A stretch of DNA of 64,000 bases, taken from Escherichia coli. Lineage in GTDB: Bacteria > Pseudomonadota > Gammaproteobacteria > Enterobacterales > Enterobacteriaceae. Position numbers and translations under genes: made by a program. The stretch lies in NCBI RefSeq assembly GCF_051903065.1, contig NZ_CP178438.1. One strand, written 5' to 3'. The notes under the pieces were generated by a model. The model had not been told where the DNA came from. It made no database searches and saw only the letters and a list, made by a program, of their open reading frames with translations. Shown piece by piece: positions 6,194 to 15,787 of the stretch (positions within the stretch are counted from its first letter, which is position 1; each line of letters begins with the position of its first letter).

Positions 6194-6655
6194 CTTAAAA
6201 ACCTATCCCGTCTAACACAAAGTGCATACATTACCACGACAAAACGGGGGATTCGCGGCCTTCTGAAAGATTGTTGCAATCTTCTGCTGACAAAGCGTGC
6301 AACGTACTGGTGAAGAAAGTGCGTTATCTCAAAGATGTGCGCAAGATCACAAAAATGATGAACGGGAAGCTAATTTATTCCTGGCTTAAATGGCCATGCG
6401 GTGAGTTTTTTTCTCTTAATTATAAGTTAACGAAGAGAATATATTTCATAACTTTTATTTATAATAAAGGTTGATAATTAAAAGCCTATATTTTGTGTGG
6501 ATAATTATTTAAATAAGAGAAACGTTTCGCTGGTAATCAAACAAAAAATATTTGCGCAAAGTATTTCCTTTGTCATAAAAATAATACTTCCAGACACTAT
6601 GAAGTTGTGAAACATAATGTTAACTTCTCCATACTTTGGATAAGGAAATACAGAC

Positions 6656-6916
6656 ATGAAAAATCTCATTGCTGAGTTGTTATTTAAGCTTGCCCAAAAA
6701 GAAGAAGAGTCGAAAGAACTGTGTGCGCAGGTAGAAGCTTTGGAGATTATCGTCACTGCAATGCTTCGCAATATGGCGCAAAATGACCAACAACGGTTGA
6801 TTGATCAGGTAGAGGGGGCGCTGTACGAGGTAAAGCCCGATGCCAGCATTCCTGACGACGATACGGAGCTGCTGCGCGATTACGTAAAGAAGTTATTGAA
6901 GCATCCTCGTCAGTAA
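6656..6916 (+). CDS. iraP: Anti-adaptor protein IraP (RpoS stabiliser)
   Basis: 86-aa [35 protein letters not shown]...; preceded by a long AT-rich leader. Confidence 0.85.
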
Positions 6917-6936
6917 AAAGTTAATCTTTTCAACAG

Positions 6937-6956
6937 CTGTCATAAAGTTGTCACGG
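6937..6956 (+). promoter_or_regulatory. Pho box (PhoB binding site) of the phoA promoter
   Basis: ctgtcataaagttgtcacgg matches the Pho-box direct-repeat consensus CTGTCAT-N4-CTGTCAC; a -10-like tatagt follows at 6965-6970. Confidence 0.75.
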
Positions 6957-7016
6957 CCGAGACTTATAGTCGCTTTGTTTTTATTTTTTAATGTATTTGT
7001 ACATGGAGAAAATAAA

Positions 7017-8432
7017 GTGAAACAAAGCACTATTGCACTGGCACTCTTACCGTTACTGTTTACCCCTGTGACAAAAGCCCGGACACCAGAAATGCCTGTT
7101 CTGGAAAACCGGGCTGCTCAGGGCGATATTACTGCACCCGGCGGTGCTCGCCGCTTAACGGCTGATCAGACCGCCGCTCTGCGTGATTCTCTTAGCGATA
7201 AACCTGCAAAAAATATTATTTTGCTGATTGGTGATGGGATGGGGGACTCGGAAATTACTGCCGCACGCAATTATGCCGAAGGTGCGGGCGGCTTTTTTAA
7301 AGGTATCGATGCCTTACCGCTTACCGGGCAATACACTCACTATGCGCTGAATAAAAAAACCGGCAAACCGGACTACGTCACCGACTCGGCTGCATCAGCA
7401 ACCGCCTGGTCAACCGGTGTCAAAACCTATAACGGCGCGCTGGGCGTCGATATTCACGAAAAAGATCACCCAACGATTCTGGAAATGGCAAAAGCCGCAG
7501 GTCTGGCGACCGGTAACGTTTCTACCGCAGAGTTGCAGGATGCCACGCCCGCTGCGCTGGTGGCGCATGTGACCTCGCGCAAATGCTACGGTCCGGGCGC
7601 GACCAGTGAAAAATGTCCGGGTAACGCTCTGGAAAAAGGCGGAAAAGGATCGATTACCGAACAGTTACTTAACGCTCGTGCCGACGTTACGCTTGGCGGT
7701 GGCGCAAAAACCTTTGCTGAAACGGCAACCGCAGGTGAATGGCAGGGAAAAACGCTGCGTGAACAGGCACAGGCGCGTGGTTATCAGTTGGTGAGCGATG
7801 CTGCCTCACTGAATTCGGTGACGGAAGCGAATCAGCAAAAACCCCTGCTTGGCCTGTTTGCTGACGGCAATATGCCAGTGCGCTGGCTAGGACCGAAAGC
7901 AACGTATCACGGTAATATTGATAAGCCCGCAGTCACCTGTACGCCTAATCCGCAACGTAATGACAGTGTACCGACCCTGGCACAGATGACCGACAAAGCC
8001 ATTGAATTGTTGAGTAAAAATGAGAAAGGCTTTTTCCTGCAAGTTGAAGGTGCGTCAATCGATAAACAGGATCATGCTGCGAATCCTTGTGGGCAAATTG
8101 GCGAGACGGTCGATCTCGATGAAGCCGTACAACGGGCGCTGGAATTCGCCAAAAAGGATGGTAACACGTTGGTCATAGTCACCGCTGATCACGCCCACGC
8201 CAGCCAGATTGTTGCGCCGGATACCAAAGCTCCGGGCCTCACCCAGGCGCTAAATACCAAAGATGGCGCAGTGATGGTGATGAGTTACGGGAACTCCGAA
8301 GAGGATTCACAAGAACATACCGGCAGTCAGTTGCGTATTGCGGCGTATGGCCCGCATGCCGCCAATGTCGTTGGACTGACCGACCAGACCGATCTCTTCT
8401 ACACCATGAAAGCCGCTCTGGGGCTGAAATAA
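7017..8432 (+). CDS. phoA: Alkaline phosphatase PhoA (471-aa precursor, GTG start)
   Basis: Recognised signal peptide [21 protein letters not shown]; the ORF-track ATG at 6948 lies inside the Pho box, so the in-frame GTG at 7017 is the likely start. Confidence 0.95.
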
Positions 8433-8476: not shown

Positions 8477-8550
8477 CTGTTAGCAACCAGACTTAATGGC
8501 AGATCACGGGCGCATACGCTCATGGTTAAAACATGAAGAGGGATGGTGCT

Positions 8551-8871
8551 ATGAAAATAACATTACTGGTTACCTTGCTTTTCGGTCTGGTTTTTTTAAC
8601 CACCGTCGGCGCTGCCGAGAGAACTTTAACCCCACAACAACAGCGTATGACCTCCTGTAATCAGCAGGCGACGGCGCAGGCGTTGAAAGGGGATGCTCGT
8701 AAGACCTACATGAGTGATTGCCTGAAGAACAGCAAGTCTGCGCCTGGCGAAAAAAGTTTGACGCCACAGCAGCAAAAGATGCGCGAATGTAATAATCAAG
8801 CAACGCAACAATCTCTGAAAGGTGATGATCGTAATAAGTTTATGAGTGCCTGCCTCAAGAAAGCCGCCTGA
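8551..8871 (+). CDS. psiF: Phosphate starvation-inducible protein PsiF
   Basis: Signal peptide plus duplicated LTPQQQ(R/K)M..CN.QA motif; trimmed to ATG at 8551. Confidence 0.85.
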   Translation: MKITLLVTLLFGLVFLTTVGAAERTLTPQQQRMTSCNQQATAQALKGDARKTYMSDCLKNSKSAPGEKSLTPQQQKMRECNNQATQQSLKGDDRNKFMSACLKKAA

Positions 8872-15001: not shown

Positions 15002-15010
15002 ACTCAGCCA
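15002..15010. repeat. IS1 target-site duplication, left copy (actcagcca)
   Basis: Identical 9-mer directly flanks both IS1 ends. Confidence 0.9.
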
Positions 15011-15065
15011 GGTGATGCTGCCAACTTACTGATTTAGTGTATGATGGTGTTTTTGAGGTGCTCCA

Positions 15066-15341
15066 GTGGCTTCTGTTTCTATCAGCTGTCCCTCCTGTTC
15101 AGCTACTGACGGGGTGGTGCGTAACGGCAAAAGCACCGCCGGACATCAGCGCTATCTCTGCTCTCACTGCCGTAAAACATGGCAACTGCAGTTCACTTAC
15201 ACCGCTTCTCAACCCGGTACGCACCAGAAAATCATTGATATGGCCATGAATGGCGTTGGATGCCGGGCAACAGCCCGCATTATGGGCGTTGGCCTCAACA
15301 CGATTTTACGTCACTTAAAAAACTCAGGCCGCAGTCGGTAA
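15066..15341 (+). CDS. insA: IS1 InsA (transposition inhibitor)
   Basis: 91-aa [43 protein letters not shown]... recognised. Confidence 0.9.
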
Positions 15342-15763
15342 CCTCGCGCATACAGCCGGGCAGTGACGTCATCGTCTGCGCGGAAATGGACGAACAGTGG
15401 GGCTATGTCGGGGCTAAATCGCGCCAGCGCTGGCTGTTTTACGCGTATGACAGGCTCCGGAAGACGGTTGTTGCGCACGTATTCGGTGAACGCACTATGG
15501 CGACGCTGGGGCGTCTTATGAGCCTGCTGTCACCCTTTGACGTGGTGATATGGATGACGGATGGCTGGCCGCTGTATGAATCCCGCCTGAAGGGAAAGCT
15601 GCACGTAATCAGCAAGCGATATACGCAGCGAATTGAGCGGCATAACCTGAATCTGAGGCAGCACCTGGCACGGCTGGGACGGAAGTCGCTGTCGTTCTCA
15701 AAATCGGTGGAGCTGCATGACAAAGTCATCGGGCATTATCTGAACATAAAACACTATCAATAA
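15260..15763 (+). CDS. insB: IS1 InsB frame (expressed as the InsAB' transposase by -1 frameshift)
   Basis: 167-aa ORF in the -1 frame relative to insA, overlapping its 3' end. Confidence 0.85.
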
Positions 15764-15778
15764 GTTGGAGTCATTACC

Positions 15779-15787
15779 ACTCAGCCA
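15779..15787. repeat. IS1 target-site duplication, right copy (actcagcca)
   Basis: Identical to 15002-15010. Confidence 0.9.

Follow-up and report, generated by a model that had tools for sequence, protein, structure and literature searches.

The promoter and N-terminal sequence of Escherichia coli phoA appeared in print in 1981-82, and Makino and colleagues are reported to have defined the Pho box in 1986-88. What is found at this locus, from the phoA promoter to the GTG start codon and the signal peptide, is textbook matter and already known.

More recent genome-wide and biochemical work has confirmed the PhoB binding site at this promoter. In ChIP-seq, PhoB gives a peak with 20-fold enrichment at MG1655 position 401676, at the site TGTCATAAAGTTGTCACG, and the same study names phoA-psiF as an operon (PMC10294691). 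It also reports phoA RNA at 310,112 in the wild type as compared to 1,548 in a delta-phoB strain, a residual of about 0.5% of wild type, and phosphate-limited phoA RNA is about 99.5% PhoB-dependent (PMC10294691). Similarly, ChIP-chip located a PhoB site, CTGTCATAAAGTTGTCAC, centred at -71.5 from the start codon (PMC3465305). Gao and Stock described a 22-bp phoA site whose 3' minor-groove extension consists of G/C pairs alone and whose upstream spacer contains one G/C pair; PhoB binds this site with an EMSA Kd of 0.59 uM (PMC4447250). Further, a 44-bp fragment, CAGCTGTCATAAAGTTGTCACGGCCGAGACTTATAGTCGCTTTG, acts as a complete phosphate-repressed promoter when fused to a foreign ribosome-binding site and gfp (PMC8601176).

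Here we analysed the phoA locus in a stretch of 64,000 nucleotides of E. coli DNA (the window). An 801-bp query taken around the phoA start matches 5,425 of 5,426 complete E. coli genomes, with iraP and phoA as the features at the matches. Positions 6880-7100 of the window are 100% identical to MG1655 401610-401830, which comprises the iraP-phoA intergenic region and the phoA start (window coordinate = MG1655 coordinate - 394,730); because of this identity, experiments made in K-12 apply directly, and the ChIP-seq peak falls at window position 6946. With a probability of roughly 97%, the locus holds the classical phoA promoter of E. coli, activated by PhoB, together with the region where translation of the gene starts.

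The whole window equals the corresponding part of E. coli 23CRST027 (NZ_AP045789.1 714308-778307), the near-identical strain, except for 3 mismatches and one IS1 insertion. This IS1 is the sole structural difference between the two, with 3 positions differing among the other 63,223 bases. The element, 768 bp long (15011-15778), lies inside a DUF2773-domain gene, is flanked by the target-site duplication ACTCAGCCA (15002-15010 and 15779-15787), and carries the InsA (15066-15341) and InsB (15260-15763) open reading frames. Between ddlA and iraP, the 23CRST027 RefSeq annotation has a 67-aa 'hypothetical protein' (WP_001300163.1) at positions 6271-6474, where the MG1655 annotation shows none.

Architecture of the phoA promoter

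A sequence-only reading of this DNA had claimed that a Pho box, a -10 element and a GTG start of phoA can be recovered from the sequence, and all three were found. On direct reading of 6700-7300, positions 6937-6956 read ctgtcataaagttgtcacgg. The classical 18-bp Pho box, CTGTCATAAAGTTGTCAC, occupies 6937-6954 on the plus strand with 2 mismatches to the consensus CTGTCATAWAWCTGTCAY, and its centre relative to 7017 is the -71.5 given by ChIP-chip. In its 22-bp form the PhoB binding site extends over 6937..6958 (plus strand) and comprises two 11-bp repeats, CTGTCATAAAG and TTGTCACGGCC, which together fit the published description of a G/C-only 3' extension (PMC4447250).

[quoted passage not shown] With up to 3 mismatches allowed to CTGTCATAWAWCTGTCAY, the scan returned 3 sites in the 64 kb, as compared to 0.22 expected from shuffled sequence (14-fold enrichment), so that the match at phoA is more than chance. 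The two other matches, which overlap each other, occupy 25309-25337 and precede the phoB open reading frame (25390..26079) by 53-81 nt; they thus serve as an internal positive control for the consensus scan. These two boxes correspond to the sbcD/phoB ChIP-seq site TTTCATAAATCTGTCATA (PMC10294691).

The -10 hexamer, TATAGT (6965-6970, plus strand), begins exactly 10 bp past the 18-bp Pho box (spacer 6955-6964) and has no -35 hexamer; the Pho box stands in the -35 position at this fixed distance. A sigma-70 -35/-10 scan returned no promoter pair at the phoA Pho box and -10 region, which is expected because the activator site replaces the -35 element. The spacing of the -10 element, and the point at which the functional 44-bp promoter fragment (PMC8601176; window 6934-6977) ends on its 3' side, lead us to infer a transcription start near 6977, 7 nt past the -10; a literature search found no direct mapping of the phoA transcription start. 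The resulting 5' untranslated region would cover 6977..7016 (plus strand), is T-rich, and differs in length between species.

The upstream neighbour on the same strand is iraP (6656..6916), annotated by RefSeq in the near-identical strain and in MG1655; 20 nt separate its stop codon from the Pho box. On the plus strand, no terminator was predicted in this interval. Within 6905-7000, the RNA fold is no better than that of shuffled sequences (z = 0.66), and Rfam gave no match with E below 0.8.

Taken with the published work, this arrangement explains how phoA is switched on. Under phosphate limitation, a phosphorylated PhoB dimer occupies both direct repeats of the Pho box (6937-6958), which takes the place of a -35 element 10 bp ahead of TATAGT and recruits sigma-70 RNA polymerase. 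Transcription from about 6977 would then produce a T-rich leader of about 40 nt carrying the GGAG Shine-Dalgarno sequence (7005-7008), and translation from GTG 7017 yields a 471-aa precursor, whose 21-residue Sec signal peptide is cut after Thr-Lys-Ala. The present analysis or the published experiments show that PhoB binds and is needed, where the annotated start lies and where the mature chain begins, whereas the exact transcription start is inferred.

Translation start and leader across the Enterobacteriaceae

The phoA coding sequence extends over 7017..8432 (plus strand) and encodes an alkaline phosphatase precursor of 471 aa with a GTG start. RefSeq places the start at window position 7017 in the near-identical strain and at the same place in MG1655 (401747..403162), so the comparison with the annotated start that the sequence-only reading had proposed turned out in favour of GTG 7017. 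The identity of the product is clear from its scores against the NCBIfam equivalog NF007810 (895 bits, cut-off 540) and Pfam PF00245 (458 bits, cut-off 24.4), and from about 99% identity to E. coli alkaline phosphatase chains in the PDB.

Structures in the PDB bear on both ends of the signal peptide. The GTG (7017-7019) lies in frame with position 6948, where the longest open reading frame begins, 69 nt (23 codons) downstream of it. The unprocessed precursor chains 5jtl_E and 6psi (471 aa) begin with MKQSTIAL at residue 24 of that longest open reading frame, which is the codon at 7017, while crystallised mature chains begin at its residue 45 (Arg22 of the precursor) or 46 (Thr23). These mature N-termini at residues 22 and 23 match cleavage of a 21-residue signal peptide after Thr-Lys-Ala, and they bear out the earlier statement that the in-frame GTG gives the known signal peptide. 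The Sec signal peptide is encoded by the 21 codons of 7017..7079 (plus strand), after which the mature chain starts with RTPEM; it has a short basic n-region, a hydrophobic core and small residues at -3 and -1.

A Shine-Dalgarno sequence, GGAG (7005-7008, plus strand), precedes the GTG by 8 nt. Its predicted duplex with the 3' end of 16S rRNA, computed for the region from -20 to -4, has an energy of -6.4 kcal/mol, which places 7017 in the top 4% of the 3,253 NTG triplets on the plus strand of the window. In a collection of 15 billion proteins, the exact 471-aa sequence of this strain occurs on 246 contigs and that of K-12 on at least 1000 contigs. Annotation, PDB chains, the Shine-Dalgarno sequence, the protein collection and the orthologous loci agree, and together they support GTG 7017 as the translation start of phoA.

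The orthologous loci come from a genome scan that gave 80 phoA loci, including members of Escherichia, Citrobacter, Enterobacter, Lelliottia, Klebsiella, Raoultella, Kosakonia, Kluyvera, Cedecea and others, 79 of which were analysable. The signal peptide is conserved in the 79 loci, and the codon aligned with 7017 is GTG in 64 of them, TTG in 13 and ATG in 2. A Pho box with no more than 3 mismatches is present in 61 of the 79, and nearly all of these 61 have a TAnAGT-type hexamer 10 nt past the box. The distance from the box to the start varies between 64 and 86 nt among the 61 loci, and its residues modulo 3 are distributed as 39/12/10, which means that the reading frame is not preserved.

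An alignment of 21 genera and species resolves the same region further. The TGTCA cores are invariant, the -10 element and a CGCTCTG block at the predicted +1 are conserved, GAG is invariant and TACATGGAGA is nearly so; between the conserved blocks lies T-rich sequence in which indels of 1, 2 and 4 nt occur. Such a pattern is that of a promoter with its leader and not that of a coding region.

The distribution of start codons also raises the question of selection on the codon itself. Changes at the first base of the start codon were counted by parsimony on a neighbour-joining tree of the 80 coding sequences, with four-fold sites as the neutral reference; the method is crude and concerns one site. 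There were about 6 G/T changes as compared to a neutral expectation of 6.0, 1 change to A as compared to 7.4, and none to C as compared to 9.2, which suggests that GTG and TTG interchange freely and that ATG is avoided. Tentatively, then, a weak non-AUG start of phoA may possibly be kept by selection across the Enterobacteriaceae, where it might cap the initiation of a very strongly induced, Sec-exported protein.

Other candidate starts

TTG 6948, TTG 6975 and ATG 7003 were each considered as functional starts and rejected, on the grounds of lacking a Shine-Dalgarno sequence and conservation.

The sole nearby ATG, at 7003, is out of frame with phoA and opens a mini-ORF, ATG GAG AAA ATA AAG TGA (MEKIK and a stop; 7003..7020, plus strand), which spans the Shine-Dalgarno sequence and whose stop overlaps the GTG start. 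Such an arrangement could mean that the five codons are translated and regulate phoA by termination-reinitiation at the overlapping GTGA, and it is true that ACATGGAGA is highly conserved and that the TGA overlaps the phoA start codon in Escherichia, Citrobacter and Enterobacter. However, this conservation is explained by the GGAG Shine-Dalgarno sequence of phoA together with its second codon, Lys (AAA), which is the source of the TGA, and ATG 7003 itself has no Shine-Dalgarno pairing (+0.9 kcal/mol). Further, the ATG has become ACG in Phytobacter and Dryocola, and in Klebsiella, Raoultella, Kosakonia and Trabulsiella it shifts into the phoA frame (at -15), so that the mini-ORF as such is not conserved. 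Regulation through this mini-ORF is very unlikely, and the mini-ORF is probably incidental.

The NF007810 profile (482 positions) aligns to the longest open reading frame from residue 21, three residues ahead of the GTG codon. This offset probably derives from some seed sequences of the Klebsiella type that were annotated from the in-frame ATG at -15.

The longest open reading frame is 494 codons long (6948..8432) and opens with the TTG at 6948..6950 (plus strand), the first three bases of the second half-site, TTGTCAC. The sequence-only reading had called this codon an ATG, which both direct reading and the list of open reading frames correct to TTG; its placement of 6948 within the Pho box is borne out by that half-site and by the published ChIP-seq and ChIP-chip sites, which cover 6948 (PMC10294691; PMC3465305). 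Downstream of the stop at 6897 and ahead of 7017, the frame contains just two NTG triplets, TTG 6948 and TTG 6975, and no ATG. Relatives whose half-site is the consensus CTGTCAT carry CTG at the position of 6948, and the TTG is therefore a by-product of the operator's one-base deviation from consensus.

It had further been argued that a codon inside the operator cannot be a start. The conclusion that 6948 is not the start stands, given that it has no Shine-Dalgarno sequence, conservation or kept frame, but the argument from operator position alone is insufficient, because no iraP terminator is predicted and a read-through RNA could carry 6948. A rival reading would make TTG 6948 a genuine minor start on iraP read-through RNA, which may be present at a low level; the product would be a precursor of 494 aa, extended by 23 residues at the N-terminus. 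The frame from 6948 to 7017 is indeed open in this strain and in K-12, and the extension is hydrophobic and superficially resembles a signal peptide. However, the hydrophobicity follows from the T-rich leader, with its TTT and TTx codons, and the phoA RNA of phosphate-limited cells is almost wholly PhoB-dependent (about 99.5%; PMC10294691). The codon shows no Shine-Dalgarno pairing (+1.2 kcal/mol) and sits upstream of the -10 element.

Conservation is lacking for both the codon and its frame: E. albertii and many other genera have CTG in its place, and the indels between the Pho box and the start have lengths that three does not divide. In 60 of the 79 orthologous loci, a stop closes the frame within fewer than 69 nt upstream of the phoA start, which means that no equivalent of the 6948 start is possible in those 60; among them are E. 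albertii and one divergent lineage of E. coli (stop at -51 in each). An exact look-up of the 494-aa product with Met as first residue found no entry in the 15-billion-protein collection, a form of search that would miss records written with Leu first, as in JGI/IMG style for TTG starts. A literature search on start-site profiling found, among the papers listed, none with phoA start-site data. A minor start at 6948 is thus extremely improbable, and initiation there, if any, should be negligible because the codon has neither a Shine-Dalgarno sequence nor conservation. The 494-codon open reading frame is a harmless artefact with two incidental causes: TTGTCAC makes a TTG, and no in-frame stop follows in the next 69 nt.

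The second in-frame TTG (6975..6977, plus strand; -42) is the start of one JGI/IMG gene call, P0005, a protein of 485 aa that begins LFLFFNV, with the first residue written as L. A 485-aa precursor from this codon is just as improbable and the call is judged spurious: the codon is in frame with phoA, has a database member and shows weak Shine-Dalgarno-like pairing (-3.0 kcal/mol), but it overlaps the predicted transcription start, so that the mRNA would begin at this codon or downstream of it. Most relatives lack the codon or have it in another frame (59 of 79 have a stop no more than 51 nt away), the members read from the same protein cluster are mostly of 471 aa, and RefSeq and the PDB precursor constructs use 7017.

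Over-extended reading frames and relation to known systems

The sequence-only reading had also taken phoA as a sign that the 5' ends of open reading frames in this window are often over-extended, and a survey of the window agrees. The 60 complete RefSeq coding sequences of the near-identical strain were mapped onto the window, and the start of each longest open reading frame was taken as the first NTG after the upstream stop. This start lies upstream of the annotated one in 23 of the 60 (38%), with a median extension of 20 codons and a maximum of 56. Examples include psiF (+6), sbcD (+14), secF, tsx, mak, yajQ, ribH and cyoD/E. For psiF (8551..8871, plus strand), the second gene of the phoA-psiF operon, the longest open reading frame begins at 8533, 6 codons too early, and the Shine-Dalgarno pairing is -8.2 at 8551 as compared to -2.2 at 8533. 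For quality control, this means that longest-ORF coordinates are not to be trusted for 5' ends in this window, and that the anatomy of a promoter and operator can be used to reject a spurious start.

The upstream start at phoA is in one respect the generic longest-ORF artefact, in which the first NTG after a stop is taken as the start. Unlike the generic case, 6948 is excluded on unusually strong grounds, namely its position ahead of the -10 element and within an activator site that experiments have mapped.

The closest described system is the phoAp promoter and phoA-psiF operon of K-12, with which this locus shares the Pho box, -10 element, Shine-Dalgarno sequence, GTG start, signal peptide and downstream psiF. 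The regulatory region has no differences from K-12, and within the PhoA protein three residues set this strain apart from K-12 (G/A, S/G and E/D). The phoB promoter boxes are built on the same 18-bp direct-repeat consensus as that of phoA and likewise lie upstream of a Pho-regulon gene, and both sites are bound by PhoB in ChIP-seq (PMC10294691). In comparison, phoB has two overlapping boxes with A/T-rich minor-groove positions, whereas phoA has a single box with G/C there, and the affinity of phosphorylated PhoB is about 5-fold lower for the phoA site than for phoB (PMC4447250).
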